From: Rhopilema esculentum
Lineage: Eukaryota
Length of the DNA stretch: 64,000 nt
Direction: 5' to 3'
Assembly: GCF_013076305.1 (NCBI RefSeq)
Contig: NW_027019317.1
Coordinates: 14,431,651-14,495,650, forward strand
Under the pieces are notes generated by a model. That model did no database searches. It saw nothing but the letters and a program-made list of their open reading frames with translations, and was not told where the DNA came from. Below, piece after piece: positions 33,775 to 64,000 of the stretch (position 1 is the stretch's first letter; each line of letters starts with the position of its first letter). A program made the position numbers and the translations under genes.

Positions 33775-34975
33775 ATTCGACAGGGCCGAAAGGGCAGGAA
33801 GGGCAGGAAGGGCAGGAAGGGCAGGAAGGGCAAGGGCAAAGGGCAGGAAGGGCAGGAAGGGCAAAAAGGGCAGGAAGGGCAAAAAGGGCAGGAAGGGCAA
33901 AAAGGGCAGGAAGGGAAGGGCAAAAAGGGCAGGAAGGGCAAAAAGGGCAGGAAGGGCAAAAAGGGCAGGAAGGGCAAAAAGGGCAGGAAGGGCAAAGAGG
34001 GCAGGAAGAGCAAAAAGGGCAGGAAGAGCAAAAAGGGCAGGAAGAGCAAAAAGGGCAGGAAGGGCGAAAAGGGCAGGAAGGGCAAAAAGGGCAGGAAGGG
34101 CAAAAAGGGCAAAGAGGGCAGGAAGGGCAAAGAGGGCAGGAAGGGGAGAATGCAAAAAGGGGAGAATGTAGAAAAAGCAGAATGTAGAAAGGGCAGAATG
34201 CAAAAAGGGGAGAATGCAAAAAGGGCAGGAAGGGCAAAAAGGGCAGGAAGGGCAAAAAGGGCAGGAAGGGCAAAGAGGGCAGGAAGGGCAAAGAGGGCAG
34301 GAAGGGCAAAAAGGGCAGGAAGGGCGAAAAGGGCAGGAAGGGCAAAGAGGGCAGGAAGGGCAAAGAGGGCAGGAAGGGCAGAAAGGGCAGGAAGGGCGAA
34401 AAGGGCAGGAAGGGCAAAGAGGGCAGGAAGGGGAGAATGCAAAAAGGGGAGAATGTAGAAAAAACAGAATGTAGAAAGGGCAGAATGCAAAAAGGGGAGA
34501 ATGCAAAAAGGGGAGAATGCAAAAAGGGGAGAATGCAAAAAGGGAAGAATATAGAAAAGGCAGAATGTAGAAAAAGCAGAATGTAGAAAAAGCAGAATGT
34601 AAAAAAAGCAGAATGTAGAAAGAGCAGAATGTAGAAAGGGCAGAATATAGAAAAAGCAGAATGTAGAAAAAGCAGAATGTAGAAAAGGTGGAATGTAGAA
34701 AGGGCAGAATGTAGAAAGGGCAGAATATAGAAAAAGCAGAATGTAGAAAGGGCAGAATGTAGAAAGGGCAGAATGTAGAAAGGGCAGAATGTAGAAAAAG
34801 CAGAATGTAGAAAAAGCAGAATGTAGAAAAAGCAGAATGTAGAAAAAGCAGAATGTAGAAAAGGTGGAATGTAGAAAGGGCGGAATGTAGAAAGGGTAGA
34901 ATGTAGAAAGGGCGGAATGTAGAAAGGGCGGAATGTAGAAAGGATGGAATATAAAGAGGACCGGACGTAGAAAGG
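33775..34975. repeat. About 1.2-kb compound minisatellite in MVP intron 8: an 18-bp GGGCAGGAAGGGCAAAAA array followed by a 16-bp CAGAATGTAGAAARRG array
   Basis: This is seen directly in the sequence. Two arrays with different unit sequences sit side by side, with gggagaatgcaaaaag transition units between them. The long ORFs across it (up to 490 aa) are repeat artefacts. Confidence 0.95.
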
Positions 34976-35630
34976 GCAGAAAGGACAGTAAGAATAGAAG
35001 GAATAATCTTTGTGGTAACTTTGTTGTTTGCCAAGACGAGGGGGAAATTTTTCCCTAGATTAGCCACGTTTAAAAGAAACAGCGATAGGCAATAACTAAT
35101 GATGTGATATGGTGTTATTCCCCAGGAGGCCTTGCAAAAACCAAATTGCATAATTAAAATCTATGATTAGAAAAAATTTACAACGTTGAATGAATGAAAA
35201 ACTATAAGATGCTTTTACGTAATCATGGAGTTTAAGAAAGAGGGGCTAGTCTACCGTAATGTTGTAGATTACTGCAAACTTTTGGTTCATGAAATGAAAA
35301 TGTTTTTTCGCCAATTTTGGGAAAAAGGAATGTTAGGGGATTTGCAATGTGATTATGACTTTATAAAACCTTAAAGAACATGGCAAACTTCTTTTGAAGA
35401 TTTAAACACCATGGCTGTTTTAGGTCAGAGTTATTCCATCTGCTAGTATTCAATCTTCTGAACTTTGTAAATATTTCACAAAAAAGCCGCCATCTTTGAT
35501 AAAGCAAGCATTAAAGAAATACAACAATAGCTATTCTGGGCAAACTTGGGCTAACAATACCGGAAAGACTGCGAATCCTGGCCAACAAAAGAGACAAGGT
35601 GAGACACTTGAAAACTATGTAGATTTTCAC

Positions 35631-35756
35631 CTTGTTCTCCTCCTCGAATTCTTCGATAGCCCGGAGAATAAGTCCGCCATCTTCACCAAGAATATACACA
35701 CTTTGTATTTCATTCTCCAGTCTTTCTCCTGGCCTCAGAAAGAAAGACTTTTCACC
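35631..35756 (-). CDS. MVP: Major vault protein exon 8
   Basis: [42 protein letters not shown] matches MVP ([41 protein letters not shown]). The acceptor is ttcatttaAG| and the donor is |GTGAAA. Confidence 0.85.
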
Positions 35757-38661
35757 CTTAAATGAAAAAGTTGAAAACAATACATCAATTCACAATGCAC
35801 AAATATAACCAAGGGCGCCATGGCTACAGCTCTCCACTAGCGCAACAAATTTGTCGAAATAATTCAGAAAGTTTGCTACGTTGCCATAAATTTTAACAAA
35901 AATATAAATTGCCTTGGTCCGAGCAAGAAATTAGCCTCCAATGCACCCCTGGCGCTCTGATGATGAAGAATCAGACAATGTATGTAGTGTTACTCAAGGG
36001 CAAAGTGTTGTCTGACAAAACATACAGTGGTTTGTTATCATCGCATTAAATAGATGGTTTGTTACCATCTGCGTGAAATTCTGCTTGAAATTCAAGGTAC
36101 TAACGTAAAACCGACCTGTTCTACAAATCAAAGTGAGCCCCACCCTATCCGTGCAAAATCAAGACTGTACAATCGGCATCGTTATAGTCGTTAGTACGAA
36201 TGCCTTACCCATATAACAAAAAATAGACTTTTGAGATTTTACAAGGGGGAATACGGCTAGTCATTAGTCAGGTGATAAAGGACTTTGTCAGTCACTAGTC
36301 AAGGTTTTTGGTGCAAGTTAGTCAAAATTTCTTTGTAGCACAATTTCTTTTAGTTTTAACGTGGTTTCATAGTTGTATATACCAAAAGATTCTTAGGAGT
36401 TTTTTACTGAATAGACCAATTCGACTTACGGCCTCGTTTTGAAAAAAACTTCAAAAATTGTTAACCTCAGATTCGGATTAAGAGCAATGATTTAAAGCCT
36501 GATTTACACGAGACGAATTTTTCGCGCGAAGCGAATTTTTCGCCACGAATTTTTCGCCTGCGAATTCTTTGGGAATTCGAAGTTTAATTTCCACTGGCAG
36601 AATTTCTTTTGCGAATTCGCCGCGAATAATGCAAAAGAAAATGGCGTCTGTTCGAAGATTGTTGTTATTAAAAAAAGCGAGCAAAAAAGCAAAGAAAGGG
36701 GTACTTGGTTCGAAAAATTTATTCAGAACGTCTACAGAAGGGGGAGTTTCATCTTTTGGTAAATGACTTACGCTTACATTGTCAGGAATAATTACTTTCG
36801 AATGTCGCCAACTACATATGAGGAGCTTTTAACCTTTTATTGCACCAAAGACGCCTGTTGCTAGAAACGTCCCATTCCATTGTTTATGTTATAGGTGCGG
36901 GATTTTCCCAGCATTGTTTAGGCCTAGTCATAGGATACTCATTCTTCACCCATGTTGTTGTTTGAACCATTGCGTAGTTTTCTGTCGTTTTGCATACTTT
37001 TGATTTAGATATGTTTACATTGCATAGCACCATTCGGCCTAGCCCTTTCTTTCCCATTGGTTCACTAGTTGGGTTCGTGTCAGATGTCTTCAATTGCTGT
37101 TCTGATTGGTTTATTTTAAAAGGCGAAAAAATTCGCAGCGAAAAAGTAGGAATGGTTTCTACTTTTTCGCAGCGAATTATTCGCTGCGAATTTTCTAATG
37201 TCCACTTCTGCGCATATTTTTCGCGCATTCGCAGCGAAAAATTCGCTTCGCACGAAAAAATTCGTCTCGTGTAAATCAGGCTTAAGTCTACTTGGAAATT
37301 TTCATTATGGTATTGCTCACGATATTGATTTTTTGACGACATAAAGATAAAAAGTTTATAAGAGATTTGGCCGTGATTGGCGACTAGGTGGGTAAAGTTT
37401 CACCCGGAATGATTTTTGCGGTCAAATCCTTTGCGATCAAACAAAATGAAAAATTGTATCCAGCCTAAATCTATTGTGATAAAACCAAATCTGAGCTAAA
37501 AAAAGTTGCGTCGCATAATTAAATTTGGAGAAATTTTCAAAAACGTGGCCGTAAGTCGAATTGGTCTATTGTGATATAAAATATTCTGTCACAGGACGTT
37601 TGGAAATTGTTATCATACGTAGCGCAGATTTTACTTTTTGAGGATATTTGACGGCCAAAAGAAAAAGCAATATCATTCAAGAGTGAAAACATAGGGAAAA
37701 CATAAAGAGAAAACATATTGCGCAATGAAAATTGGAAAATCTCTTTCAAAACTCTTCCCTTAAATTACCAGTTAATAAGCAGAAGCTATAGGCCATAACA
37801 ATGACGGCAAACATTTGGGTTCAAACCCCTCCCCCATCTCATCGTCTCGATGAACCCCAATTTGTAAGCGTCTCGATGAACAATAGCCAACACATAGACA
37901 ATATGGGCTAGCTACAACCATTTTGATTGGAAAGCAAATGGATGGTTGATTTCCCTCCTGCTCTTAGTTGTTTTTGGGCAAACACAAGCTCATCTTTGCT
38001 CCTTTTGTGACCTGATGATAATACTTATTTGTCAAGTAGAAATGATTCTCTCTCAGCTCAAGTGCACACAGTCAGAAATTTTGAATATATGAGAATACAT
38101 GTGGCACTCGAGATTATTCACACTATTCAATAAAAGTAAGTCAATAAAAAAACATGGCTTTGGCTTGGCTTTTACAAATAATTAGTCAGTCAGTTGGCAA
38201 AACAGTCTGTTAGTCACCTACTACATCGTCGAAACCCCTTCTACACCCTCACCTTGGGAAGGTCTAATTTAATAACATATAACAGCTCAAAACTGTTAAT
38301 TGCGATAATTCTTCAGAATCTGCAGAAACTATTCCCTTTTGCTTCGTTAGCTATGACAAAAGGAGAGGGTATACCAAAATACAGCCAGTCATGATTTTCA
38401 TGTTGCCTTGCTATAGGTGGACATGAGATTGATCACATGAAGTTGCCTCGATTTGATTCTGAAAACAGGTTTCGTCAAAGGTCAGTTGTAAACAATGGCC
38501 TTCGAGATCACATTAGATCACATGGAACTAAAATCATCACACTGAAAGCTAAGGAAACCTGGCACGGCAGAGGACCTTTTTTACCTTGACAACGTTAGCT
38601 TCAGATAATCACCTGCAACATTTAATATTCTTCTTCACAGTTAGCAAATAGGCTGTTTTAC

Positions 38662-38772
38662 CTTGATGAGCTTCTTCTGTCCCATTTGAGGCTTGCCATC
38701 CTTTCCTACAGGGTCCATGATAACACAGTACTGTCTGTTGTTCAACGTTGTGATCTTGACCACATCAACAAC
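38662..38772 (-). CDS. MVP: Major vault protein exon 7
   Basis: [37 protein letters not shown] matches MVP ([36 protein letters not shown]). The acceptor is attattAG| and the donor is |GTAAAA. Confidence 0.85.
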
Positions 38773-38921
38773 CTAATAATTGGAAAACTGCATTGAGTTT
38801 GAATACCATTTTGGGTCTCACTTTAGTCCTAATATTAAAATAAAAAACCCGAAACATATGGGCTATTCCTTCTTAGCTCCTGCCTTTTAAAAAGATAAAC
38901 ATTTGAAAATTAGGCAAGGAC

Positions 38922-39047
38922 CTCTTCGTAGATGCCAGGTATGTGCGCCTCAGTGTCTTGAAAAGTAATTAACCATTCTTCGCCGTTTTTACGAACATTG
39001 CCACGATCATCTGTGAAGGTTCTTGTGGAGCGCATATGAAGCGCCTT
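38922..39047 (-). CDS. MVP: Major vault protein exon 6
   Basis: [42 protein letters not shown] matches MVP ([42 protein letters not shown]). The acceptor is tgtattctAG|. The donor |GTCCTT is weak, so the exact 3' boundary could shift by a few nt. Confidence 0.75.
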
Positions 39048-39947
39048 CTAGAATACAAAAGAGTAAACTACCATCAGGTTTGACAAACAGCAAGTCTTTG
39101 TTTACAGATAAAGAAAAGTTGACTAAGGCCTAGATTAAAGAAGGAGCCAGTCATCTGACAATCCTCATTATGATAAGCTGACACTGGGAAGACTGAATCC
39201 CGAGGTTGGCACAGCCTAAAACATCAAACTAAATAGGTCATTACATTTTGAAATATTACACGAAGCATTAGAAATTTACGCGGTTTTTTGTTTGAATAAT
39301 GATTACACTGTGTGGTTTAGTTATGGGGTAGTTTCATTTACTACTCAAAAACATGTCATTCTGTTTGTGCACGCCCAGCCTAATTTTAAGAAAGAAAATC
39401 AGAAATGTTTCTCACTTGCTTAATCAAATGAAATTTTGTTCCTCTCATGCGCTTAAGGTATGAAGTAGGTTGGGCACATGATAGGCTCAGTGTTTGATCC
39501 AGGTCTAATAATTTGTGATTGTTGCCTAATATCAATATTGGTTGCAGCTAGGTGTTTGATATAAGAATGAATCATGATATGGAATTTGTTAATCCCACTA
39601 ATGTGAAAGAGCTATTAAAACATGAAATGATGGGCGATTCCATTCTGATACTGGAAGCCAGTTGCAATCAGAATGAATGATGATATGCAATTTCTATATA
39701 GCACTGATATGAAAGTGCTTTCAAAATGTGAAATGATAGCACTGATATGAAAGGATTCACTTCACAACAGTAACATCATATGTAAATTGAGTGATTTTGC
39801 ACATTTATTTCAGCTCAAAATTCACATGAACGTGCAGATATAACCATACACAAATGAATTTTGGAAAATTAATAATGTAAAATTTTTTTTTCTGTATATC
39901 GAAAATACAAAAAATGCTAAAAAAATAATAGGTGATAGAGAAAGTAC

Positions 39948-40070
39948 CTTTTCTGTTAATACTGTAGCCTTGACAATATCAACAACTTCTTCATAGGCAC
40001 CTGGGAGGTATGCGCCCACCTTTTTCACAAGCCATTCCTCACCAGTCACTCGAAAATTGCCATTGCGATC
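39948..40070 (-). CDS. MVP: Major vault protein exon 5
   Basis: [41 protein letters not shown] matches MVP ([41 protein letters not shown]). The acceptor is aatcatttcAG| and the donor is |GTACTT. Confidence 0.85.
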
Positions 40071-40249
40071 CTGAAATGATTTTGCAAAGCAGTTATTTTT
40101 CTATCCATCTACTTTCCCTACTATCTACATTAATCCTGCATCTATCTTTTAAAATGATACTTGCTGGTGGCTGAACACAACTTTGTAAGCTGCTTGACAG
40201 CATTAAGTAAATATGCTTGACAATCATCAAAATTTTAGCTAAATCACAC

Positions 40250-40353
40250 CTTAGTTTCTCCTCTGGCCCTCAATTTCAAGGCCTGGTTTGGCTTTATTAC
40301 TGTGGCTCTGATAGTCTCCAAGACCTCAACCTCTTTTCTTGGAATGTATGTTC
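40250..40353 (-). CDS. MVP: Major vault protein exon 4
   Basis: (G)[34 protein letters not shown] matches MVP ([33 protein letters not shown]). The acceptor is cttcttcctAG| and the donor is |GTGTGA. Confidence 0.85.
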
Positions 40354-41043
40354 CTAGGAAGAAGTTTACATGAAGAAGACTGAAGTTATTTATGAATGCC
40401 AAATAAATGAAAATGACAATGAAGAAAGACATTGCAATACAATTACCTGGAAACAGGTTATAAAAACAATAGCAAAACGGATCTAGTGGCATTATTTTCT
40501 ATACCAATTTTGAATGACAGAGCGTAATTTATATAGCTTACAAAATAACTACCATGAAGCTATTATAAAATTTTCGATCTCTTGACTAAAGAGATCTTCT
40601 TGGCTAAAGAGAGTGGGTGGTTATTGTAAAACTTTATAATTGAGCGTATTGGATAGGGGTTTAAAAACGAGTGAGGGCTAAATAGAGCTTTCAGGGTGCA
40701 TTGGATTTCTATTTATCAAATTGGTAAGGTAACAATTGGCAGGCAAGAGAAGATGGTTCTAGAAAAGACTCTCTTGGCAGTATAGGAAAATCAAACCATT
40801 TGACTAAAAAGACAGTTCACAAAACCCAACATCTTGTTGAAAGGTTAACAAAGAAAATGAGAAAACAAAGTTTGAAACTGATTCTAGATAAGTTAGAATA
40901 GATATTGGATTGCCTCATGTTGTTTTGCTGTTTTCCTACCTTTCCTCATTCATAGTACAAGTGCCTTGTCTGAGGGTGCTGTCAAACCAAGACATTTGAA
41001 TGAAAATAAAAACTGAATGGCAAAGAGATATGGTATTATGTAC

Positions 41044-42673: not shown

Positions 42674-43814
42674 CTTGACTTCAATCCAATTTTAGCCAAC
42701 CTAAAAAATTGCATAAAATATATTATATAAAAATAGCTCACATTTAACTTTTTTCTTGTCACAGATCTGAGAAATCTTACACTCTGTGGATTCTAAATCA
42801 CTTCTTCAAATAGCAAGGAACATAACAAAGATGGGGACATATTTTAAACTTCTGCTTCAAAAGTAGGGGGGGGGGGGGTTATAGAGGATCTCCATAAAGT
42901 GGCTGGCTAAACAGAGCTTTTACAGTATAAAAACTTTTCTTCTGACATTCCTCAGAGTAAAAAATGCCAGAATAAGGATTCGAAATGCGAAGTGAGAAAA
43001 GATATCTAGTTGTGAATCAAATAATCAGAAACTTGGCCTAAAAGTAAGTTGAAAAGAAAATTCATCACAGTGATGCAATAATGACGAACGTGGGTATAAC
43101 AGGGTAATAGGCTTCGAATACTGGATTCTGGATCCTTTTCATTTCAACTGGATTCTCCAAAACATAAAAATGAACAAAACCATTTGAAGTTTATGTAAAA
43201 ATTTATCTCGAAGAATGTTTGCTTACGCTGCAGTTTTCACGTTTGCTACCAATAGTAGGTACCCACCTTTCATCAACCTAATGGTAGTTTTATTTTAATA
43301 TTTTAACGAGTTTTCTGTCAGACAGGCTGCAAAAGGATGACGAGTTTAATACACAGCATAACCTACAATCGGCAGGGACTTCATGCCGAATGAAATGGCT
43401 GTCAGTTGCACGACGAAACAATTTTACCAGCCAGTACGTGCTTTTGGGGGCCTAAAAGGGTGGATGAGGAATTTACTTATATTGATACAGCATATCACAA
43501 AAATCTTTGAACTAAAAATATAGAAAATGTATGCGAAAAGTACTGCTTACCTCAAGATTACCCTCAACTTGTGCAGATTTCAGCAAGGAAGAATCCAGTG
43601 GGCTTTGGTAGGCGGAAGGTCGCTTGGTTTCATGCTGCGCGAACCTGATTGGCTGAAAATGATGTAATTGTTGCATTGGTAGGCCGAAATTATAAATAAG
43701 CCTCGCTTCAGCAGCGAGGCCCCCATAAGGCGAGCAAAAAAAAAGACAATTTTGCAAGGGAACATTTTGCGAGTCCTTTTTGCATTTCACTTGATTTCTT
43801 CTGTTCACACACTA

Positions 43815-49009: not shown

Positions 49010-50198
49010 GTGGACTGGCAAGATACTGCACTTTTAACACGAGTAGCTAAAGCTCTCGACACGGTTGACCACAAAATTTTACTAGACAAACTCAACCACT
49101 ATGGTATAAGAGGAAATCCATTAAACTGGTTCAAATCGCACTTATCAAAAAGAACACAAAAAGTTTGCATAAATGGAACTTTGTCTGAACCCCAAATTAT
49201 AACTCATGGTGTACCCCAAGGAAGTGTACTTGGTCCCCTTCTATTCCTGTTATATATAAACGATTTGCCTTCGTGCTCCAAAATCCTTAAATTCCATTAT
49301 TTCGCTGATGATACAAGCATCTTTCTTTCTAATGATAATCCAAATGATCTTGAATCCATTGTTAACCATGAGTTAAAAAATGTCTCGACATGGCTTTCCA
49401 CCAACAGGTTATCACTTAACGTTGATAAATCTAATTTCCTTACTATCTCAAGTAAGAAAACAATTGATTCTATCCTAGACATCAAAATTGATAATATTCC
49501 CTATAGAAAAAGTCCATATAAAATTTCTTGGTGTTCTTATTGATAATAGATTAAATTGGAAACAACATACACAAAATGTCAACACAAAAATCTCGAAAAG
49601 CATCGGAATACTGGCAAAGATGAGACACTTTGTTTCATTAGATGTACTAAAACAATTGCATCATTCTTTCATTTCTCCTAATCTCAGCTATGCTATCATT
49701 AATTGGGGTAGTGCTTCAAAATCTGCTACGAACGATTTAAGAAAAAGTCTTAAAAAAGCGATTAGAATTATGAACTTTGCAGGCTATAGAGCTAAGTCGA
49801 AGCCCTTGTTTTCTAAACTAGAATTACTAAAATTTGAAGATACTTATAAATTTGAAACTGCAATATTCAGGAACGATGTTAACAACAATAACATCACCTC
49901 GACTTTATGTGACCTGTTTCGAAAATCCAATGTACGGCACAGCTTTAAGACTCGCCAAGCCACTCAGAATCAGTTCTCCCTGCCTCTGGTAACAACTGAA
50001 TGTCGTAAAAAATTTATTACATTCAATGGCATCAAAATATGGAATAAAATACCCTTAGAAATTTGTTCTATGTCAAGTGAAAATAAATTTAGTAAAGTTC
50101 TTTACAAGTGGCTATTGCAACATTATTGAAAATCACGAATCTTCAGTCAAGCACTCAATTATATCGTGAATATTAAGCTTAACCCCTTATCGTTATTA
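49010..50198 (+). mobile_element. LINE RT fragment (RT core to thumb), 5'-truncated
   Basis: The ORFs at 49010-49543 and 49488-50129 read ALDTVDHKILLDKLNHYGIRGNPLNWFKSHLSKRTQKVCING...VPQGSVLGPLLFLLYINDLP...FADDTSIFL...KFLGVLIDNRLNWKQH. This is the same clade as the 12370 copy. Confidence 0.8.
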
Positions 50199-51244: not shown

Positions 51245-51440
51245 GTGTTTCTTGATATCTGTATTAAACTGAATCCTGACAAATGTCATCTTTCGATTTT
51301 TGGGGAGAAAAACACTGACGTATCAGTGCAGATTGGTGCAACCACAATAACAGAATCTGATGAAGAAAAACTTTTAGGTGTAACTTTGGATAAGAACCTG
51401 GATTTCAAGAACCACGTAAACGCACGTAAACACACAAACG
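51245..51440 (+). mobile_element. Short LINE RT C-terminal fragment
   Basis: LNPDKCHLSIFGEKNTDVSVQIGATTITESDEEKLLGVTLDKNLDFKNHV matches the RT tail motif (LNxxKTxxxxFxxK...xVKYLGVxIDxxLxFxxHI). Confidence 0.5.
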
Positions 51441-52719
51441 TAAAAAAGAGAGAATTAGAAGCAAACAAGAGAAGGTGCTGCTAAAGTCGGCGGCAGTGCA
51501 AGTCTCACGGGGACTGCAAATAATATGTGTAACAACAAAAACACCGAAAGAACTACTTTAATAAGTAATTTCCTCTAACCTCCTCATTGCATTGACTCTA
51601 TTGTACTAACTCTATTGTATTGATTTTGTATATGTTAGCTCCATTTGTTTTGTAAAGTATTACTGATGAAAACTTCGGTCGAAACGATTAAGCGATAGTG
51701 TTTTTTCTGAGTATCTAAACATATATATTTATATAAATGCGTTCCCCCTCGACCCACTAAATATACTTCTTTGTACACAATTACCCTACTAGTGGAAAAT
51801 CCTTAAAAATACCTCTCCACTTGAAAAACTATCAGCTCTACAGGGCTCAAGTAGAATTATTTCTGTCATCAGCTGACAACAGAATTGACATTAGTGCTTG
51901 ATATCATGATCAAACACAAATTTTTCTTTGTGTTCAATATTTTTTGAAATCGTTGATTTTTGAAGATGTTATCTTGAAGACCTTTAAAGACGATTCTTGT
52001 TGGACTTTTTATGTTCTATTACAGGGGAAACGTACCACGCTTGATTTATTTTTATATACTATCTAATTATGTATCATTACACCCCATGGCTTTACACATG
52101 AGACTTAGCGATTTTGAGTAAAGATAACTAAATGTTTCCGTACAGCCAACCATTTTAAGCCGGTTCGCCATGATCACTTGTTGTGGGATGTACAGAACTT
52201 TGTAGTTTGTTGGCGCGAATAACCATGATTTCCCTTTGTTTGTAGTTAGTTTTATCTATATAGCAAATAGGTCATATTCCAAGTCTTGGTAGCTTTAACA
52301 AAACTATTATCACCGCAAATGATTTTATCATCAGCCTAAAAGATCCAGGAAACTTATACTGCCTGTCCAAAATTCATGAAATTTGTTTCTCTGATCATTG
52401 ACTATGCTCTGATGAAATATTTATAGAGGACGTAATACCAGAAGGACTGGGATTCAATGTGGGAAGAGAAAAGATGAACGAACACGAAAGAAAAGATTAT
52501 CGAGTTTATCGTTAAACAATAATGAGAGATATACAAACTGAATGTTATCAAAATAATGGCAAAAGCTAACAAATATAAGATTAAAAAAATGAAAAAAGTG
52601 ATATTAATTACCATGATACACTTCTAAAGGTATGAAAACGAATTTTACACAACGCCTCATGTCGATTAAAGTTTAATTTCATGTCTTCCATTGCTCTTTT
52701 CCTATCTCCTGCAGCAACA

Positions 52720-52935
52720 TCATTCCATCTTTAGGTAGAGAAACGAGGCTAAGATTACCATCAACGCGCAGAATGATAACTGAATCGAGACTGCGCTACT
52801 TGGGCTTTGTTTGAAAGAGCGGTAGATGGTTCGACCGTTTCTTTGTTGAATAGGACGATAATTGTTGCTAAGGTATTCCGTTTCATTTGCCGGCTTCATG
52901 GTTTTATGGTGAAGCAGCTTTCTGAAATCCGTCAT
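52720..52935 (-). CDS. Alpha-carbonic anhydrase terminal exon with a hydrophobic C-terminal tail (stop at 52720-52722 on minus strand)
   Basis: MTDFRKLLHHKTMKPANETEYLSNNYRPIQQRNGRTIYRSFKQSPSSAVSIQLSFCALMVILASFLYLKME* matches alpha-CA ([39 protein letters not shown]). It then extends into a roughly 20-residue hydrophobic tail, as in membrane-anchored CAs. The acceptor is ttgacAG|ATG. Confidence 0.75.
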   Translation of the reverse strand: MTDFRKLLHHKTMKPANETEYLSNNYRPIQQRNGRTIYRSFKQSPSSAVSIQLSFCALMVILASFLYLKME

Positions 52936-53430
52936 CTGTCAATGCAGAATGCAAAACTTTGATAGTAATTACGAGAAAAGCTTTGAACCCGAAATCGCAA
53001 TCAAACAACAATTAAAAAGTGAAACAAAAGAAATGTAGATCCCTTCCCAGAAATTTTCACAATGAATTCCTTAGTAAGTAACAAGGGACTATAAGTACCA
53101 TCAAGATAAAATAAGTACCAGCCTTACTTTTTCTTGGTACCTTGTGCCAAAGGCAACTAAACTGACATACATTATAAAGAAAAGAAAGGTGTTTCTCAGC
53201 ATGGTTACCAAAGAAGTTCTGTTTCAAAGGATGTCGCATTTTTAGCTATAGGGAAAGCAAAACGACATGTAGAATTTGGCGTAAAAAGAAAGATTTGGGC
53301 ATGGATTCCATTAAGAATTAGATTGAGAATTAGATTGGCGCTTCCTTTGATCATGACACAGAAAACATTACCAAATAAAATCTTCACCCAGAAGAAATTA
53401 ACTGTAGAGACAATAAAATTGTATTTGTAC

Positions 53431-53588
53431 CTGTGCATGGGAGATAGTAATTTCCTTTGTAAAGACAACCCACTGAACCGCTTCACTACAAGGTGGAGTT
53501 GTAAGGGATCCATTGTAATGGTAGAAGGTGTTGTTGGGGACCATGAACGCATCGTTCAAAGGAAATGGCTGTATTTCCACTTTTGTTT
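53431..53588 (-). CDS. Alpha-carbonic anhydrase exon with the SLTTPP active-site loop
   Basis: (K)[52 protein letters not shown] matches alpha-CA ([51 protein letters not shown]). The acceptor is ctttgcAG| and the donor is CAG|GTACAA. Confidence 0.8.
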
Positions 53589-54139
53589 CTGCAAAGTGTT
53601 AAAGAACATGAAGGGAAATAATCATTACCGAAAATGATTTGAGAATTTCCATTTTAGACTTTCTTTAAGGATGAGATTAGAAGATTAAACGACACTTGGA
53701 AGTAGATTTATCTTGCTATGCAAAGGCGAAGTCGAGGAAGTCAATAGAGTGATGACGTCACAAATTTGTTTTCTCTAAAATTGTTGAATATAGATTTGAT
53801 GACAACGCGAAATCAAATATAGGTGTTAAGAATTAGAAGAAATTTATTAAGATATCCTATGTAATGTGGTCAAAATTGAAAAAAATACCGTGCACACTTG
53901 AGAGGTGTTGACAACGAACATAAAACTTTCAAATTACCTTAATCACAAAGACTCATTTACTGAAAAATTATGTACAACTTTGCGATTGTCGATAGTTTAA
54001 AAAGAGCGCTTTGCCGTTCATTTCGCCTTAATTGAAAACATAAACATAAAAAACTTTACCTATTTGTTTTCTGTAACAGCAACTATTTTATGGAATATTC
54101 AAATACAGATATTGATTTTAAATTTTGCACAGAGATTGA

Positions 54140-54425
54140 TGTCAGCCCCGTAACCTCTCTTCTGGTAATACCCCCGTAACCTCTCTTCTGGTAACACCCC
54201 CGTAACCTCTCTTCTGGTAACACCCCCGTAACCTCTCTTCTGGTAATACCCCCGTAACCTCTCTTCTGGTAATACCCCCGTAACCTCTCTTCTGGTAACA
54301 CCCCCGTAACCTCTCTTCTGGCTATACCCGCGTAACCTCTCTTCTGGTAACACCCCCGTAACCTCTCTTCTGGTAACACCCCCGTAACCTCTCTTCTGGT
54401 AATACCCCCGTAACCTCTCTCGAAA
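54140..54425. repeat. 30-bp x about 10 tandem repeat (CCCCCGTAACCTCTCTTCTGGTAAYA) in the carbonic anhydrase intron
   Basis: The copies are near-perfect and seen directly in the sequence. Confidence 0.95.
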
Positions 54426-54561
54426 CCCTTTCAACTTTCGTCAATCAACTCTCCTGAACCTCTACAAAAATCTATCAACTTTTAGGTAATTCTAAAAGAG
54501 TATTTTTCCGTAGCAACCATTTATTACGGTAGCAAAAGATATCAATGAGAGATTAACTTAC

Positions 54562-54634
54562 TTCCCAGGGTGATATTCGACAAGAAAGGAGTCAGCTTGC
54601 TAATAAACGAGTTATTTTTGCCGTTTGGATCGAT
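54562..54634 (-). CDS. Alpha-carbonic anhydrase exon
   Basis: IDPNGKNNSFISKLTPFLSNITLG matches the alpha-CA pattern ([21 protein letters not shown]). The acceptor tttttttttAG| is strong and the donor A|GTAAGT is a perfect consensus. Phase 1 is continued correctly by the next exon. Confidence 0.6.
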
Positions 54635-54844
54635 CTAAAAAAAAACAGTATACGTTGTTATTGGATTGTGATAAAATTCCGAATTTATCTATCCTTTTCT
54701 CAGTTAATAATTTTGTGGGCACGCTAAAATCACAATGGATCTAAGTGATCGCGGGAAGGATTTACTTTTTAATAATTTGGTGCTTAAAAGATTAACAAGG
54801 TAGGATTGTCTGCATTAGATACATTAGATCAAGATAGTACGAAC

Positions 54845-54937
54845 CTCCATAACCGTACCGAATACCATCAAGCCATCGTATTTGGTAAGTGCAACAGACA
54901 CATTGTCGTAGGCTGTATTCACGTGAACAAAATGCAT
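54845..54937 (-). CDS. Alpha-carbonic anhydrase exon carrying the third zinc-ligand histidine
   Basis: MHFVHVNTAYDNVSVALTKYDGLMVFGTVME matches alpha-CA ([33 protein letters not shown]). The acceptor is ttttttgccttcgtAG| and the donor is GAG|GTTCGT, which is weak. Confidence 0.65.
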
Positions 54938-55645
54938 CTACGAAGGCAAAAAATTCTAACTGGAACAAAAACCAGTATTCACCAATTATGTTTGGAATAA
55001 ACCAATTCACATCTTTATTTAACAGTGCTGTCGAAACGAAATTCATATTGGAGTAGAGGGGGGGGTGGGGGTTGGGGGCGCTGTCTATTGTATTTCAGTA
55101 TCGTGTTTATACTTCAGTATGAGAATTATTGGCTCCATCCCCCCCACCCGCTTCCGAAGGCCCTGTTTATATATAGCAGTATATATTGACGACCAGCAAG
55201 TAACACAGACTTGACAAGACTGATTTAGATAAACGGCAATCAAACTGACAGATTTCAGCACGGGGACTATTTTGAATTGGTTTCAACACAAAACATTGCG
55301 TTGAAAAACGATTTGGTTAGGCAAAACCCAATTGATTAGGGAATTTACACCATCAGAAATAGAAAAAAACATTTCTGGAGAAGACATTTGCTGAGTGATT
55401 TGTTATCAAACGACATAGGTAAAGTGCTGGTTGTAGAGTTCGCTGCTTTTTGTTACTTTGCTGTTTTCCAAAATATAATTATTTGATGCTAAGCAGCCAA
55501 GGCCTGAGAAAAATTGTATTTCATGGACTTCACATCAGGCTATTGCATGATCAGAATCAGTTAAATCGAATGAAATAGATATTGATATCCTTTTTTGCAA
55601 TAATATCTCAAAATAAATAAGAAATCAGGAAATGAGAGACATTAC

Positions 55646-55773
55646 CTCACCCGGATGGAGATGCGAATTTTGATATTTCATTGAATGCTCCGAGCCAACA
55701 CTGTCGGTTGCTCCCCAATGAAAATGAATCTGCCATGGCCTGAAAATCTTACCTACGATCAACGCCAAGATGT
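55646..55773 (-). CDS. Alpha-carbonic anhydrase exon carrying two zinc-ligand histidines
   Basis: DILALIVGKIFRPWQIHFHWGATDSVGSEHSMKYQNSHLHPGE matches alpha-CA ([25 protein letters not shown]...), including the HFHWG zinc-His motif. The acceptor is aacaagAG| and the donor is GAG|GTAATG. It joins in phase to the previous exon (G + AC = D). Confidence 0.65.
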
Positions 55774-56039
55774 CTCTTGTTTACAAATAATTAATCTTTC
55801 TACAGAATTGCAGTAGTTGGGAGAAATGGGCGGGTCGAGGAAAGCCCCCCCCCCTAAAGAACCAGTTTTTTTCGGAAAATTTCGTAAGCTTTAGTTATTT
55901 GTCAGAATTAAACAGCAAAATCTACCTTTAGTCCCCTTGATATATACCTCACACTGAAACCCCGATTTCGTTAAAATTGAAATCTGCCGCGAACAGTTAC
56001 AGCTTACAACGGACACATCTTAGAGTATATCAGAACCAG

Positions 56040-56160
56040 TAAATTGAAGTTCAGGTTGGCTGTTCTTAATTTTTCACAAATCTTCGAGGCTGGAATGTTC
56101 TTAACTCGTTCTTATAATATTAGATTTTAAGCAGTTTACTCGCCAGCTATTGTGCTGAAG
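56040..56160 (+). repeat. Internal fragment of the same MITE family
   Basis: gttcaggttggctgttcttaatttttcacaaatcttcgaggctggaatgttcttaa matches about 11040-11130 of the full copy. Confidence 0.4.
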
Positions 56161-56445
56161 GGGCATGTTTAAAAAAAAAATGAGCCATGATTTTTTGCCA
56201 ACAGGTTTGAAGATTGACAAAAAAGCACTCATAGAAAGCAAAAATGCCTTGTTTTTGACATTACCGTCTGTAAAAAAAATATAAAATATATATATAGAAA
56301 ATGTAAATAGACTCGTTCTCCTTAAAAAGACAGGGCACTTCTTCACCTGTAGACTGAGAAGTGTGCCCTAAAAACTCTAATTATGTTGCGCGATTTAGTT
56401 TCAAACAGGCATGCTCTTAGAGAAAGGTTAAACTGCACAACATAC

Positions 56446-56661
56446 CGAAAGCGCGAACGGACATCCCATTCCAATTTTTCAAAGACATCTGTAAAGTATG
56501 TCCATTATTTTCTAGTTGGAAGTTGGAGGATGAAGTTAGGCCATAGCCAGTGAATTGGAAAGGGCTGAAACTCTTGTAATTTGCTTCGGACTCTAGCAGA
56601 TGGATCGGTGACTGGCGCCTCTTGTTGCAGGTTGGATAGCTTTTATACCAGTTTGCTGGGC
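56446..56661 (-). CDS. Alpha-carbonic anhydrase exon (first recognisable catalytic-domain exon; the upstream signal-peptide/WGY exon was not located)
   Basis: (G)PANWYKSYPTCNKRRQSPIHLLESEANYKSFSPFQFTGYGL...FQLENNGHTLQMSLKNWNGMSVRAF matches alpha-CA ([22 protein letters not shown]...YDPSLKPLSVSY...NNGHAFNVEF). The acceptor is tcttgtttcgcctAG| in phase 1 and the donor is G|GTATGT. Confidence 0.7.
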
Positions 56662-59600
56662 CTAGGCGAAACAAGATTACCACGAGAAAATTATCGAATG
56701 TTGACTAAACCCAACAGTGAAGGACTTGGATTTTCAATATCAAAACGAAAATTTCTTGTTAATGATAAAAACGTGAAAAGGTAAAATGATGGCCTTTGAT
56801 CGCCCTTCTAAGCTGGCTTTAATTTCGGGGCTTAAAACATGGCTTTTAAAAGAGCAAACAAACCCAGACAGATGTTTGCTGAAAACAAAAAGATGAAAAC
56901 AATGGAAGTCTTGTTATTTGCTGTATCAACCAATCAGTGGATGCCAATTCAAAGAAAAGAGTCTTCGTACCTTCACTTCCACTGTAGCCCCAAGATGTTG
57001 CTGAAAAAAAGATACGATAGATCATATATAGAATTAAAAAGCAAAAAACTGCCTCAACATGAAATGTTTTATAAGCCTAGTCACGGACAGACAAAGCAGG
57101 TTACGCAAATCACAACCTTGTTGTTCTGGTTATACAGCAGAAGTATTATATAGCGTTTTTTTTTAAAATCTAGAAAACTGTGTAGATACTTGGAATATTG
57201 CGAACCTAGTCCTCTTTAAGGCAGTGAAAATGTTTGTTAGTGGTCAGCAAGTGATGTAAATGCCTTTATCATTACAAGGCCTTCCTGGGAATAAATTAGC
57301 ACAAGTGTGGCATTTTGCAATCCTAGACTGGGGTAGGAGTGTAATGGAGTGTTTTTGATGTTTTACCCGATTAGACAGGAAATTTTCATAACAATCTAGC
57401 AAACTAGGTAACCGAAGTTTTCAAAGTTTAAATCATTAGAGTAAAAGCCACTGATCATTTTAAGCCCTGGGAACATTCTGGCAAATGACCGGAAGTTGCG
57501 TTTCCGGAAGCATGAAAAATGCACTGTCAGCAAAATTTAGACTTTCGAATTTTTTTCAAATCTGATGACACTATCGGGAAGAACATGCAAAACAGAGCAA
57601 AAGTTTCCTGATAGTGCAGTGTTTGGTACAAGCAGTGCCTCGGAAAGGATTTACGGGCCCCTGGTCAGGACGAAAAAAATAAATAGTAAGCATTCCTTTG
57701 GCAGACGCTTCTAAGGGGTGGGGGGAATGCTCCTCAGGAGTTTTTGAAAAGATGGTCGCTAAAATTGCTATGGTATCGTAACTGCTCTAGTGGCAGCGGC
57801 GTAGATAGAGGGAGGTCGGAGGGGGCAAACCCCCCTGTAGAGCTTAACTGCTATTTTGTTGGAAAACTTCTGGTCTTCTCAGAAATTTAACACGATTGTC
57901 TATGTTTATCTAACTGTTATGCTTTGAAAGGAATTAATTTAAAGCTAAAGAAACGCAAGAGCATCTGAATGTATCAAAAGATTTATTTATTTCAGTTCCG
58001 ATGTCGTAATGTTATGTTAACACTAGTTTTGCATCTCATTTCATACAGCACGTCAAAAATTTCCTTTACTTCGTCTTTGACATTGAAATTGCCATAAAGA
58101 ATAAATTCTATCTCTTATCAGAAGTTGAAAGGATGTGCTCTGCCTGGCGAGCCTCGATGCAGAGAGGAGATGGGGAAGAACTTTACAGCCCTCAATTTAA
58201 CACTGTTTCCACTGGGAAGGAATTATCCTTTCCTTCCGGAATTGTGATCGATTGGAAGAAAAAAGGGCAGAAATTACAAATTAGAAAGAAAAATAGAGAT
58301 TCTCTAAGAAATTGGGATAACATTTCTGATTTATAGATTAGAAAATGAAGTTGTCAGACAGTAAGCAGGCCAATCACAATGGAAATGTTTCAAGGTTTTT
58401 GCAAACTGTGGCTAGTAAACTGGCTTGGCAAATTCAATGTTATTACTGTACAAAAAGCTGTTTTTACAATTTCTAATTTGGATTACATAATCTGTTCATA
58501 TGTAATGGCTACGTTATGGCAATTTAATCACAGGCTCTGTTCCGTCAAATCACACTAATTTTGTGTCTGTTCTAAATTTGATGAACCATGGCAGGATAGC
58601 AGCAATATATCATTTATTTGTCGTTGCTCGCAAAATTTGCAACAATTTAAATGATATTCCATATTTAGAAGTAATTCGTGGTGTTCTATTCAGTAATGTG
58701 TTACAAAATTAAAATAATGGCGTCACACCTAATAACTCTATTGTCACTACCCCCCGATTCTAAATGCATCGGAATTTTCGAAAAGTTTCGCAGCTCATTT
58801 TTCGAGGAAGGAAATTTTCGAAACCAAACAAGGAAAAGTTTGGAACTAGACAAAAGAATATAAGTTAATGAAGCGCGTGTGTTCAAGGTAACGCCAGTAA
58901 CGATTTCTCGAGAAAGAAAGGCAAAATAACGAGTGAAAGCAATTAATCCATATAAATCTAGTAACAGGGAAATCGGAAGAATTTTCGTCAATTTTGGAAG
59001 GAATTTTAAGCAAATAGAAGGATGTTTTTGGGGAAACTGATTGAGTAAAAAGTGGAAACACAGCAGATTAAACATAGTAAATAACTCGATTCAAAAGCAT
59101 TATGTCATCCTTTTAGTTTCCTGTGTTTTGATAAAAAGCAAATTATTAATTATAAAACAGGCGTGCTGCGGAGTGGGATCGCAAATAAGAAAACGAAACA
59201 AACACTACCTAGGATTGATGAAAATTGAAGAGACGACAAGTTTCAAATAACAGCTTTTGGCTTTCAAAATAAACAATACAGTCTGCAAATTCTTCTATTA
59301 TCATAAACTGTTCATGAATCATAAACTTTGATTTCTTTTCTGTGGCATAACTGCGCAAAGTTAATCCTTAAATCGAGGATCAAAGGGGGTTTTTTGCAGC
59401 ATAAAGGCATGTCTCTAATGTGCCGCATGCCGTGTAAAATTTGCTCAACACAATCTCAAATTGTCTTTTTTGTGAAGAAACAGCTGCTTTTATGAGTAAT
59501 TAAAATACACTTTGTTGCATCCTTGAGCCACCCATTGGGTTTCAATGGATCCAACCTAGTTTTCACCCGGGAAGTAACTCTACTTTTCGTATTTCGTATC

Positions 59601-60263
59601 CAAAACAAGAGGTCCATAATAAAGAACTTAGTTGGGAGACTGAAGGGACACATTCAAGTGGGGGAATTAGGGGGCATTTTCGACAGAAAAGGGGCGTGGT
59701 CTAATTTTTTTTAATCTCTAGAGCATGGCACCGCAAATGCAAGTTACCTCCCTCGTATAGGGCCGCTGCGAGGAGGAGGCTAGAGGGCAATTTCCCCAAT
59801 GGCCTTATAAAGTAATGAATTCCGTAATAAAAACACATTCAATCGGCGAATGGAAAAATAAGAAAGGGAGGAATTCGAGGATCTATGGTTTCATAAAGTA
59901 TAAAGTTGTCTTGATCTAGTTGGGTGCCCTTACAACATGCTTCAGTGTTGCATCTTGCGAGGGGCAAATCAGTCCATGGAAATCGAGTGGCAGTTCTCGT
60001 ACACCCTTTGTGAAAATGCTATTGTTTTATTAGAAAACCCATATAAATCCTTTTGTCTTTGTAATAATCTCTCACGCTATTTGGGAAAGTGAATTGCCCC
60101 TCGGCATTTGGACGCTAAATCAGATTGGACGCATGTAAATGCATTAAAATATAACCATTAACCGCAAATTGTTTTGGTCACGCTATGTTTTGGTTGCATT
60201 TGACCAGACACAAAGCAGCCAACAATTGAAAATGTATTCTTTATTCTGCCTTTGTCATTGCTA

Positions 60264-60930
60264 TCGGAGCGGAGTAACTTTCATATCAGATAGGGGTTTG
60301 AGTTACACTACGCCACACCAATCCGATACACAACGCTCTGATTAGCGGAGTGAAAATCACTTCGCTCTGGAGGTGATACGAAAATCACTCCGTAGCGGAG
60401 CGTTGTAGTGTAATCGCACGAATCCGATATGCTCAACTTTGAAATAAACCAGTTTCTTATTGTTTTCTGCTTGAAGCAATTCGATCGATAGTGAACAATG
60501 GCGCTTTCTGAGATTTTGTTGCTGTTGGATAATGCCAAATCGAAATCGTCAAAACATTTTCGTATTTGGATTTCATCTCTTCAAGAATTTTAATGAAGTG
60601 CCCCTTGGACGAAAAAAAATACTTAAACATATCAGATAACATCTCGCTATCCTTCCTACGAACCCCATTATTTATCTCTCAGTCATTTTATGCATAGCTA
60701 TTGAAAAAGGCTGTTTTCGTCATTTTATGCATAGCTATTGAAAAAGAATTCGCAACAGCACAAAGATCCGAAAATATCGTCAAAAAATTTAATCTGGTGG
60801 ATTTGGTGTACCAGAAATGCAAAGGAATAAAGGCTTATGAGCGAGCGGAGCGTCGTAGTGTAACTGCTAACCTAAATATCACTCCGGAGTAAAAGTTACT
60901 CCGCTCTGCTCCGCTCCGATAGCAATCCGG
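60264..60930. mobile_element. Foldback/MITE-like element with about 30-bp TIRs and internal sub-repeats
   Basis: The left end ATTGCTATCGGAGCGGAGTAACTTT (60264) faces the right end AAGTTACTCCGCTCTGCTCCGCTCCGATAGCAAT (ending about 60928). Internal inverted copies gttacactacgcc...acaacgctc pair with gagcgttgtagtgtaa, and a 28-bp tandem duplication is present at 60692-60750. Confidence 0.5.
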
Positions 60931-61839
60931 TATAGTGTAACTCTAGCCAAAATCTGCTCCACGGAAGAAACAGTTGAGGTAGTTCAGAGTCGGAAGAAAC
61001 ACGTCTTAAAATGAATAAAGGATCATGCAAAGGTAGTTGCTCCGTTGGTTTAATTTAAACCCAAAAACAAGGTCCCCCTTAGGTAAAATTGTGCCTTGTG
61101 TCCTTTTTCCCTGAATTTTCATAGTAGAAGCGCCAACGGCAACTTACAACGAGCTCCAGATCTTTTTTAAGTTCAAAAGGAATGCAAAGATGGAAAATGG
61201 ATCTAAATTGACAATCATTGAGTCCATACTGGAAAGTATAAAGTTGGTACGCCGCATATATACGCCAAAGTTAATCAATGTTGCGCCAACTTGCACCGGT
61301 ACTCCACTCCACCCACTCCATCAAATGTAAACTATATGCAAACAGGGCCACATTAACATGTTTAGGGCCCCAGGCCCAGGCATATATTAACAAGTGTACT
61401 GTACTGAGAAAAAATAAATTTCATGAATCATTGAAAAATTAATTAGAAGCCTAAAACCTTTGCCTCTTCATGAATTTTTTGCTTAATTTTTTAAGATAAG
61501 AATGCGTCCTCAAATCAAAACAAACGTCTCAATTCTGGTTGCCGCAGAAGGGTGAGAAATTTGTGAATATGAGTGATTCCAGTTCCCTGGAGAATGCACT
61601 CTTTGAAGCGATTTTACCTAAGCAAAATAGTTGAATGTTGGAACAACGTCTTGATATCGGAACTTGTCTTGGAGTTGTGAATAAAAAAAGGAGTTCAATA
61701 ACTGAATTTTCACCATGTGCCGTGGCCGAACATTACTAAGAATGGGCAGATAACTGCTTGGGGTCCCTATTTGTTCTAGATCTAGCATTCCTAAGGTACA
61801 GAGCCGCACTACCTACTCGAACCACGGGTCTGTAATCAG

Positions 61840-62095
61840 CGCCATCAGTTCGTGTACGCGGACCGTTTTGCATGCTAAATTCCACCATTCGTTTTAGTGC
61901 CCGATTGTTTAAGTGCTTGGGTACATTTTTGCATAACCAAAATTGCCCTTCGATTGTGTACGCGGACAGTTTTGCATACTAAATTCCACTATTAGTTTTG
62001 GTACCCTATTGTTTAAGTGCTTGGGTACGTTTTTGCATAACCAAAATTGCCATGCCTTTGTGTACCCGGACCGTAACGCATAAGGTTACCGAATA
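61840..62095 (+). repeat. Two tandem about 120-bp copies of the dispersed repeat also found at 11960-12110
   Basis: Seen directly in the sequence. Confidence 0.7.
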
Positions 62096-64000
62096 GGTAA
62101 TGTGAAAACCCCCGTCTCAGGGCCTCGAGTACTGACAAGGAAACTGGCAACTCCCTAATAAAACTTGATAATGCATGTTGGCAAATATTTTTGGAATCCT
62201 GAAAAGGTTCTTCCTGCAGTTTCACTCTCAAACTTCCCTTTATTTAGAAATAATATACTTTCGTTTGAACTCCAAAAGTTCTATAAAATGCGGACACGAC
62301 CAATAGGTTGAGCAAGGTAAACAACAGCTGTCATGAGGACAACGCTGGAAACATCCATGCTTTTCAAACTGTCCGAAACAGATCGCCAGCAGCTGCGACC
62401 TGCGAGCGAAAGCATTTGAGCTGCGAGTAAACAACAGTAGTATAGAATAGAACTTTACGGATACTATGAGCTAGGCTATCCGTAATCCAGTGCAAGAAAT
62501 CCAGCGTAGCATTTGCCGAGCATTTGCAAGTTTTTTAGCCTGGTCAAAGGATAACATTATAGAAAGTTTGTTCAAAGATCAGTACAATTGAAGCTAACGA
62601 GGTTGGAGTGACACTGTCTACCAGAAATGAGGCAGAATTGTTTAAAAGACATAACATTTTGTGATGTCAGACCCACAACAATTCAACTACTTTAGTAAAT
62701 CTTGGATCCAGCATTCGAGTTCAGTTTGGTTCATTTTGTAACGGCTTGCTTCAAAAATAATATTTTGAGTTAGAAGAATTTGACTTACCTTGTTGCACTT
62801 GGCAAACACTGGCAAACAGCACAAAGAAGACTTCAAGACTCATCGCGTAAATTGAAGTACCTGTTACTGAACCTTGGAACTTGCTGAAAGAACTGATGTG
62901 AGTCGCTGAGCCCTTTTGTAGTCCTTCCTTCTTTGTCTTGCTCTCCCTTTTGTCTTGTTCAAAACTGTGTCTTTTACCCCCTTTTGTCTCTTTTTCTGTG
63001 TTCCCGCGCTTGTCTTGTTCCTCCCAAGTTATGTTTTGTCAAGGGAATCACTGCATTTGCACGCCCTGTCTCCTCCGATGCGTCCCTGGCAACATCCAGC
63101 AGCGGTCGTTTTGAGTGCTAAACGGGTGTGATCCAGGGTTGCCAAGTGCTGGCAAGTCCTCAATCCCAAAGTTTCTGAATCCCAAATCAATCCCAAATCA
63201 ATCCCAAATCAATCCCAAAAGTAGATTCCTTCGCAGAGCTTATAGAAAGGAATAGACATTCCTCTGCAGCCTTGCCTTCTATATTTCCTGTGTAACGAAT
63301 TACGCATTATTCAGGGACGCCTGCACAAGATTAGGGCAGAAAGGGCAGTGTTGGTGCCGTGGGCAAATCGCGAAACTTTTCGTCTAACAGAATCGGGCAT
63401 TTCTAGGTGGGAGAGGGGTGAGGGTGGGGTAACGTAATAAAATATTAACTTAGAATATTCGGTGTTTTTACTAACAAAGATTCTAAACGAAATTATCCAT
63501 TATCGCTATCAAAACCAAAATCAAATTGTTATGGTATAGAAAGTACAACCTTTATGGGATCCAAGCTCTGGCAAGAGCTAACAAATGACATTAAAACATC
63601 TTCTAGCCTCGCAATATTTAAGAAAATGATTAAAACTTGGAAAGATACAAAATGCAACTGCAGACTATGCAAACCATACGTTGCGCAGATTGGATTCTTG
63701 AAATAGTCATCGAATAATTGTATATTTTTATCTAATGAGTCATCCTTTTAATTTTGTACATTTTCTATATCATTTATCCATTCATTGTGATTAATTCAAG
63801 ATTTGTAAATGTAGTATAAATAGTAGGCTTTAATTAGCTGTTATATTAGCTAAAAAAATTTGCTTCGCCTACTGTAAATTATTTTATAATAATAATAATG
63901 GAAACTTTTCATTTTCAATTCAATTAAAACTACAATTACAAATTTCACTATTACAGAGGTAATTTGCAATTAGCTAGCCTGGGTTTACAAAGAAAAAGAC

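Follow-up and report, generated by a model that had tools for sequence, protein, structure and literature searches.

Structure of the carbonic anhydrase gene

The window analyzed here is a 64,000-nt stretch of the genome of Rhopilema esculentum, a jellyfish of the class Scyphozoa, order Rhizostomeae (assembly GCF_013076305.1, contig NW_027019317.1, positions 14,431,651 to 14,495,650), and on its minus strand lies an intact gene for an alpha-carbonic anhydrase (CA). The complete model comprises eight coding exons between 62843 and 52720 (exon and intron coordinates are given in the direction of the gene). Six of these exons had been recognized in a first-pass annotation made from the sequence alone; the region it described, 52720-56661, is the 3' three-quarters of the gene, with 56661 as the first base of the exon encoding QSPI and 52720 as the last base of the TGA stop codon. 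The minus-strand sequence of 52000-58000 was inspected, and the exon bounds were located by string search and then spliced. The six exons were recovered with the same bounds, with AG acceptors throughout and GT donors except after the last exon. The sequence encoding a putative signal peptide and the WGY motif, which had been expected in one exon upstream of 56661, is indeed present, but it is divided between two exons (57000..56971 and 62843..62789), both inside the window.

Exons 1 to 8 are 55, 30, 216, 107, 93, 73, 158 and 216 nt in length, and introns 1 to 7 are 5788, 309, 693, 708, 210, 973 and 495 nt. All seven introns have GT-AG boundaries. A frameshift or stop in the upstream exon had been named as a feature that would indicate a pseudogene; the upstream exons are open, and the frame is uninterrupted across the eight exons. 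The spliced coding sequence of 948 nt (315 codons plus the stop) translates exactly into XP_065054800.1 (P0001 in our homolog set), the RefSeq protein 'carbonic anhydrase 2-like' [Rhopilema esculentum], with identity over all 315 residues. In a protein search, the 296-residue partial product had likewise matched this NCBI protein, identity and coverage both being 100%. RefSeq already contains an annotation of this gene with an identical product. The gene is an ordinary member of a well-known enzyme family.

The coding part of exon 1 (62843..62789) carries the ATG, a putative signal peptide (MSLEVFFVLFASVCQVQQ) and the first base of codon 19, and is followed by the donor gtaagt. The first 18 residues were mapped to 62843..62790 by a six-frame search as an exact match of the P0001 N-terminus, and exon 1 was also matched by tblastn at 62843-62781. 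Dispersed repeats and a tandem duplication of 104 bp at 61852-62074 (Tandem Repeats Finder) are located in intron 1 (62788..57001, phase 1), where an open reading frame (ORF), 58701-59075, gave no Pfam match. Exon 2 (57000..56971) encodes (A)TSWGYSGSE(G), in which the mature CA domain begins with the conserved W-x-Y motif; W22 and Y24 are conserved in at least 90% of 70 homologs. Flanked by a tttttttcag acceptor and a gtacgaag donor, it joins exon 3 in phase, and it is required because it links exon 1 in frame to exon 3. An ATG near 57050, upstream of exon 2 (atgttgaggcag...), was dismissed as a start because a stop follows after 8 codons.

Exon 3 (56661..56446) encodes Cys40 (Cys23 in CA II numbering, which is given in brackets hereafter), QSPI, Asn81 (Asn62) and the proton-shuttle residue His83 (His64). 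Exon 4 (55752..55646) encodes QIHFHWG with the zinc ligands His110 (55726..55724) and His112 (55720..55718), as well as Glu122 and His123 (Glu106 and His107) and a clade-specific longer loop, SMKYQNSHLHPGE. Its acceptor at 55752 yields GKIFRPWQIHFHWG, in agreement with the orthologs; an alternative acceptor, ttttcag/gcc at 55739, was dismissed because the frame would be lost. The third zinc ligand, His138 (54934..54932), is encoded together with the rest of MHFVH and Val140 (Val121) in exon 5 (54937..54845), while exon 6 (54634..54562) encodes IDPNGKNNSFISKLTPFLSNITLG. Exon 7 (53588..53431) contributes SLTTPPCSE with Leu220, Thr221 and Thr222 (Leu198, Thr199 and Thr200) and Cys225 (Cys203), and also Trp231 (Trp209). 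Finally, exon 8 (52935..52720) encodes the end of the CA domain (..RTIYRSFK) and the putative C-terminal signal, and terminates with the TGA stop at 52722..52720. Candidate poly(A) signals, ATTAAA and AATAAA, are located 42 and 669 nt past the stop codon.

In the whole window, tblastn with P0001 detected neither a second CA copy nor pseudo-exons, all matches outside the eight exons having E > 0.4. Meanwhile, self-BLAST showed that six segments of the CA introns (56028-56135, 57373-57601, 60007-60105, 60949-61217, 61535-61621 and 61852-62118) have further copies of 68-86% identity in the window, including copies near 11.0, 12.0, 19.5 and 44-47 kb; these are short dispersed repeats.

Family, fold and catalytic residues

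The family assignment of the first-pass annotation was borne out by a Pfam search, in which Carb_anhydrase (PF00194) matched the product over profile positions 2-254 of 254 with 239 bits (cut-off 27) and E = 8.4e-71. The motifs on which that assignment had been based, i.e., QSPI, HFHWG, EMHFVH and SLTTPPCSE, are all present and lie in one open frame with the hydrophobic tail SAVSIQLSFCALMVILASFLYL (residues 291-312). The top sequence matches in the PDB are human CA7 (1e-41), CA12, the CA domain of PTPRG, CA2, CA6 and CA14. The E-values of CA7, CA12, CA14 and CA2 range from 1e-41 to 1e-37, and no single vertebrate CA isoform stands out. The AlphaFold2 model of the 315-residue protein, built on a 70-sequence alignment, has a mean predicted local distance difference test (pLDDT) score of 92.5 and a predicted template modeling (pTM) score of 0.85. 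When this model was compared with the PDB by Foldseek, human CA II, CA VII and CA XIV and mouse CA XIV were matched with target-normalised TM-scores of 0.91-0.94 and root-mean-square deviations of 1.6-2.0 Å, and the best 50 matches listed were all CAs.

The catalytic features were defined according to a previous survey of cnidarian CAs (PMC4981384), and every catalytic residue is retained. Equivalents of CA II Asn62, His64, Gln92, His94, His96, Glu106, His107, Glu117 and His119 are all present, as are those of Val121, Leu198, Thr199, Thr200 and Trp209. Among the 70 homologs, the zinc ligands His110, His112 and His138 and the Cys40/Cys225 pair are invariant. Since the zinc histidines, the proton-shuttle His83 (His64) and the gatekeepers Glu122 and Thr221 (Glu106 and Thr199) are retained, catalytic activity is predicted for the protein, with the proton shuttle intact.

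Export and membrane attachment

The N-terminus contains a hydrophobic core, VFFVLFASV, with a Kyte-Doolittle 9-residue maximum of 2.87, which is located on its own exon directly before W-G-Y, and a hydrophobic N-terminal segment is common to all orthologs. Cysteines occur only at residues 14, 40, 225 and 300. Because residue 14 falls within the putative signal peptide and residue 300 within the tail, the mature domain would contain exactly one Cys23/Cys203-type pair. In addition, six N-x-S/T sequons are present. The hydrophobic N-terminus, the cysteine pair, the sequons and the hydrophobic C-terminal peptide together point to a protein of the secretory pathway. The RefSeq name implies a cytosolic enzyme of the CA II type, whereas the predicted signal peptide, cysteine pair, sequons and C-terminal signal would rather characterize an extracellular, membrane-tethered isoform. 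This suggests that the name misdescribes what is probably an extracellular and lipid-anchored CA.

Downstream of ..RTIYRSF, the C-terminus reads K-Q-S-P-S-S-A-V-S-I-Q-LSFCALMVILASFLYL-K-M-E-stop. A putative signal for attachment of a glycosylphosphatidylinositol (GPI) anchor is encoded at 52806..52732 on the minus strand and consists of a patch of small residues (S288-P-S290-S-A292), the spacer VSIQ and the hydrophobic run L297-L312 (52779..52732), followed by K-M-E. According to a rule-of-thumb scan, the best candidate omega site is S290 (52800..52798), although S288 and A292 also fit; the propeptide would have 23-27 residues, and 4-6 residues separate the small-residue patch from the 16-residue hydrophobic run. 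Windows of 19 residues with a Kyte-Doolittle value above 1.6 start only at residues 288-297, and in the AlphaFold model a lone helix at 293-314 lies outside the globular domain.

The tails of 91 retrieved homologs with a locatable domain end were then classified. No more than five residues follow the hydrophobic run in 50 of them, and more than 12 in 19. The fish CA9/14-type members of this second group possess 27-35 cytoplasmic residues, which include a polybasic stretch and begin with YQQRKKYSKFKKD. In the six closest homologs retrieved, which include the jellyfish proteins P0003 to P0007 described below and of which three come from transcript-like contigs, only 0-3 residues follow the run, and several of these proteins end inside it. 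Two of the jellyfish homologs, P0004 and P0007, have the same architecture and are encoded by a whole uninterrupted ORF on contigs of 1.1-1.8 kb; contigs this short carrying a whole ORF indicate transcript assemblies, which provide mRNA-level support, in relatives, for a protein ending right after the hydrophobic run. Since the R. esculentum protein belongs to the short-tail class, attachment by GPI in the manner of CA4 is favoured over a type I anchor and, provided that the protein is exported, appears likely. Therefore, of the vertebrate enzymes to which the first-pass annotation had likened the protein, the GPI-type CA4 remains a suitable analogue, whereas CA9, CA12 and CA14 do not, only three residues being left after the hydrophobic run.

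Comparison with other carbonic anhydrases

The nearest relatives were found among jellyfish: a protein of Sanderia malayensis (EP00794_P013891, P0006), the EukProt 'GoldUCD' record (P0003), which we take to be from Aurelia, and the transcript contigs P0004, P0005 and P0007. They share 47-62% identity with the R. esculentum protein, as well as the predicted signal peptide, the CA domain, a short hydrophobic C-terminus and the motifs FGxxF[KR]PWQIHFHWG and EMHFVHVNT. Those with more than 50% identity also have the longer loop after GSEH. In contrast, the tail is conserved in character only and not in its detailed sequence. The Sanderia model appears to lack W-G-Y, its hydrophobic N-terminus continuing straight to TGPPNWYK (alignment columns about 40-55); a homologous 30-nt micro-exon was probably missed in that annotation.

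With vertebrate CA4 and CA15, the protein shares the predicted mode of attachment, a predicted signal peptide, a single CA domain bearing the Cys23-Cys203 disulfide and a hydrophobic C-terminus without a cytoplasmic tail. In the human CA4 gene, too, the signal peptide and the beginning of the mature protein are encoded by separate exons (1a/1b). However, the jellyfish protein is not an ortholog of CA4 by sequence, as CA4 does not occur among the best 60 PDB matches, which are headed by CA7 and CA12. Thus the resemblance to CA4 would lie in the attachment mode only, and GPI attachment is itself a prediction here. CA9, CA12 and CA14 have an extracellular catalytic domain, as is predicted here, with the same disulfide, and they are among the best sequence and structure matches of the protein. 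The CA9/14-type homologs of fish differ in combining a transmembrane helix with the basic cytoplasmic tail described above, where the jellyfish protein has three residues.

A previous study divides cnidarian alpha-CAs by their disulfides, with none in the cytosolic enzymes, one canonical bond in the 'secreted and membrane-bound' cluster and two in the 'secreted' cluster (PMC4981384). The second, cnidarian-specific cysteine pair is not present in the R. esculentum protein, and by this criterion the single canonical pair would place it in the 'secreted and membrane-bound' cluster. Within the same survey, CruCA5 of Corallium rubrum, which is predicted to be GPI-anchored, has a signal peptide, the single canonical disulfide and a predicted membrane attachment (PMC4981384), as would the R. 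esculentum protein. It differs in having a 42-residue linker between domain and anchor and in lacking the proton-shuttle histidine; here, the linker comprises about 4-6 residues and the equivalent of His64 is retained. The set of Le Goff et al. (2016) contains no scyphozoan (PMC4981384). To a catalogue of cnidarian CAs, the present gene would contribute a scyphozoan in the membrane-bound group; it opens no new question.

Alternative readings of the gene and its product

Taken together, we consider it probable that this intact gene encodes a catalytically competent, extracellular-class alpha-CA of 315 residues that is exported and GPI-anchored. Several points weigh against this reading. Both the signal peptide and the GPI signal have been recognized by hydropathy and rule-of-thumb inspection, and no positively charged residue occurs in the n-region (MSLE) of the putative signal peptide. 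The segment V293-L312 comprises 20 mostly hydrophobic residues, which is long enough to span a bilayer, and could act as a type I anchor with a three-residue tail. An older gene model proposes a different 3' end, and the physiological role considered below is wholly a matter of deduction. The third of these points leads to a reading in which the same exported enzyme keeps its C-terminus as a type I transmembrane helix with a three-residue cytoplasmic stub, as in CA9, CA12 and CA14. The helix 293-314 of the AlphaFold model, the lysine directly after the hydrophobic run and the presence of CA12 and CA14 among the closest PDB sequence matches would fit such an anchor. However, only K-M-E follows the run, the orthologs have 0-3 residues at this place with several ending within the run, and the transmembrane-type homologs from the same search bear tails of 27-35 residues with a polybasic stop-transfer signal. 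Moreover, the S-S-A patch precedes the run by 6-7 residues, which is where an omega site would be expected. A transmembrane anchor is therefore rather unlikely, and GPI attachment is preferred.

The older model is the EukProt protein EP00795_Rhopilema_esculentum_P016052 (P0002, 457 aa), which differs from the RefSeq protein in two ways. One concerns intron 6, where a 26-bp minisatellite of 10.6 copies with 95% matches is located at 54146..54420 (Tandem Repeats Finder; 9 in-register copies against 0 expected). The array is stop-free on the gene strand (ORF 54099-54434), and P0002 translates it as RGYGGVTRREVTGVLPEE... repeats between ITLGK and TKVEIQ, where none of the orthologs has an insertion; this is a clear case of an annotation artefact arising from a repeat. 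The other concerns the 3' end, where P0002 splices from CALM/gtaatc inside the tail to 43652..43551 and 43160..43068 (minus strand). The true transcript might be nearer to this model and encode a longer protein, possibly as an alternative isoform. P0002 does exist as a predicted protein for R. esculentum, its two extra segments map to the window at 100% identity, the GTAATC inside the tail looks like a donor site, and the first segment is flanked by a ttttcag acceptor and a gtaagc donor, the second ending in a TGA stop. Nevertheless, P0002 is demonstrably unreliable because it translates the minisatellite, and the 63 residues of its extension, which end in the hydrophobic stretch YYPVIPTFVIIASL, match no Pfam family and occur in no ortholog. 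All orthologs, including those derived from transcripts, end directly behind the hydrophobic run, the short model is the one adopted by RefSeq, and the candidate poly(A) signals lie shortly past the short-model stop. A transcript of this kind is thus highly improbable; P0002 was rejected as the primary model on account of the translated minisatellite and the extra C-terminal peptide without a family match, and this public model appears to be wrong in two places, in that a minisatellite is translated and the 3' end is spliced away. The two segments at 43551-43652 and 43068-43160 may be spurious or may be exons of an unannotated gene or untranslated region between the CA gene and the neighbouring vault-protein gene. 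An even smaller probability, close to none, attaches to a non-functional copy, whether a pseudogene or an inactive carbonic anhydrase-related protein (CARP), and nothing was found in its favour. The 948-nt frame is unbroken and all splice sites are canonical, the identity of 47-62% to the other jellyfish orthologs goes along with invariant catalytic columns, and both gatekeepers are kept. CARPs lose at least one zinc histidine, whereas the jellyfish protein keeps all three.

Proposed mechanism and physiological role

If the protein is an exported, GPI-anchored enzyme, the N-terminal hydrophobic peptide would direct it into the endoplasmic reticulum, where the domain would be N-glycosylated (six sequons) and the Cys40-Cys225 bond would be formed. 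The C-terminal ~25 residues would be exchanged for the GPI anchor at about Ser290, so that the enzyme would come to lie on the outer side of the plasma membrane. There, a zinc-bound hydroxide, held by His110, His112 and His138 and oriented by Thr221 and Glu122, with His83 as the proton shuttle, would interconvert CO2 and bicarbonate. This reaction may serve acid-base balance and the transport of CO2 and HCO3- across epithelia. The most likely role we can infer is accordingly a general one, the handling of extracellular CO2, HCO3- and H+ at epithelial surfaces.

The first-pass annotation had pointed to calcification in marine invertebrates as an example of the importance of such enzymes, but this angle is not transferable to a scyphozoan. 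A role in calcification is unsupported because the statoliths of scyphozoans consist of calcium sulfate hemihydrate, not carbonate (PMC12746419). In addition, the number of CA genes in cnidarians shows no correlation with either calcification or symbiosis, and Hydra, which does not calcify, has twelve CA isozymes (Le Goff et al. 2016, PMC4981384). In the literature on CA in Rhopilema and jellyfish we found nothing on this gene, R. esculentum and carbonic anhydrase being mentioned together only in passing.

A more specific proposal is that the jellyfish-clade homologs (Rhopilema, Sanderia, GoldUCD and three transcript contigs) constitute a scyphozoan lineage of their own, whose CAs are lipid-anchored, carry His64 and are probably fast, possibly with a jellyfish-specific job unrelated to carbonate skeletons. 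The markers of such a lineage would be FGxxF[KR]PWQIHFHWG, EMHFVHVNT and, in the closer members, the lengthened 124-134 loop. If this were true, the job might be, for example, the control of pH or CO2, either for the thick mesoglea or in the surroundings of the calcium-sulfate statocysts. We regard this proposal as quite unlikely, and the general epithelial role is preferred. The value of the locus lies in a complete, checked gene model that includes an easily missed 30-nt micro-exon, and the gene has little importance beyond housekeeping.

Other features of the window

The CA gene had been described as lying tail-to-head next to sequence rich in transposable elements. The richness is roughly right; however, the reverse-transcriptase (RT) fragments on that side are on the plus strand, so the arrangement is tail-to-tail. 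These non-long-terminal-repeat RT fragments occupy 49010-50129, 2.6 kb beyond the 3' end of the CA gene, with an RVT_1 match within 49010-49543 (E = 6e-18) and a contiguous ORF to 50129; an ORF at 49488-50129 gave no Pfam match. A further probable RT fragment, judged by eye, is located at 51245-51484 on the plus strand. Farther away, RVT_1 fragments were found at 12477-13109 on the plus strand (E = 3e-11) and at 16954-17781 on the minus strand (E = 3e-24). All four RT fragments fall short of a complete element ORF.

Pieces of a major vault protein gene are distributed over about 22900-40500 on the minus strand (33048-33521, about 24120-24286, 39822-40049 and 40244-40492). The Pfam matches are to Vault_4 and Vault_3 (E = 1.5e-16 and 5.6e-11) and to the MVP shoulder domain (E = 9e-19), and two further ORFs resemble N-terminal vault repeats by eye. 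Large satellites are located in the same region at 22249-24080 and 33782-34981. They include a 13-bp unit in 142 copies (AAAAGAGATGAGC), the others being nested 9-, 16-, 18- and 64-bp arrays. The satellites give rise to long spurious ORFs, reaching 490 aa, and account for strong spikes of GC and AT skew in the composition profile. At the left edge of the window, an ORF with a SANBR-type BTB domain (PF11822; 1827-2165, minus strand, E = 1.1e-20) probably represents an exon from a different host gene.

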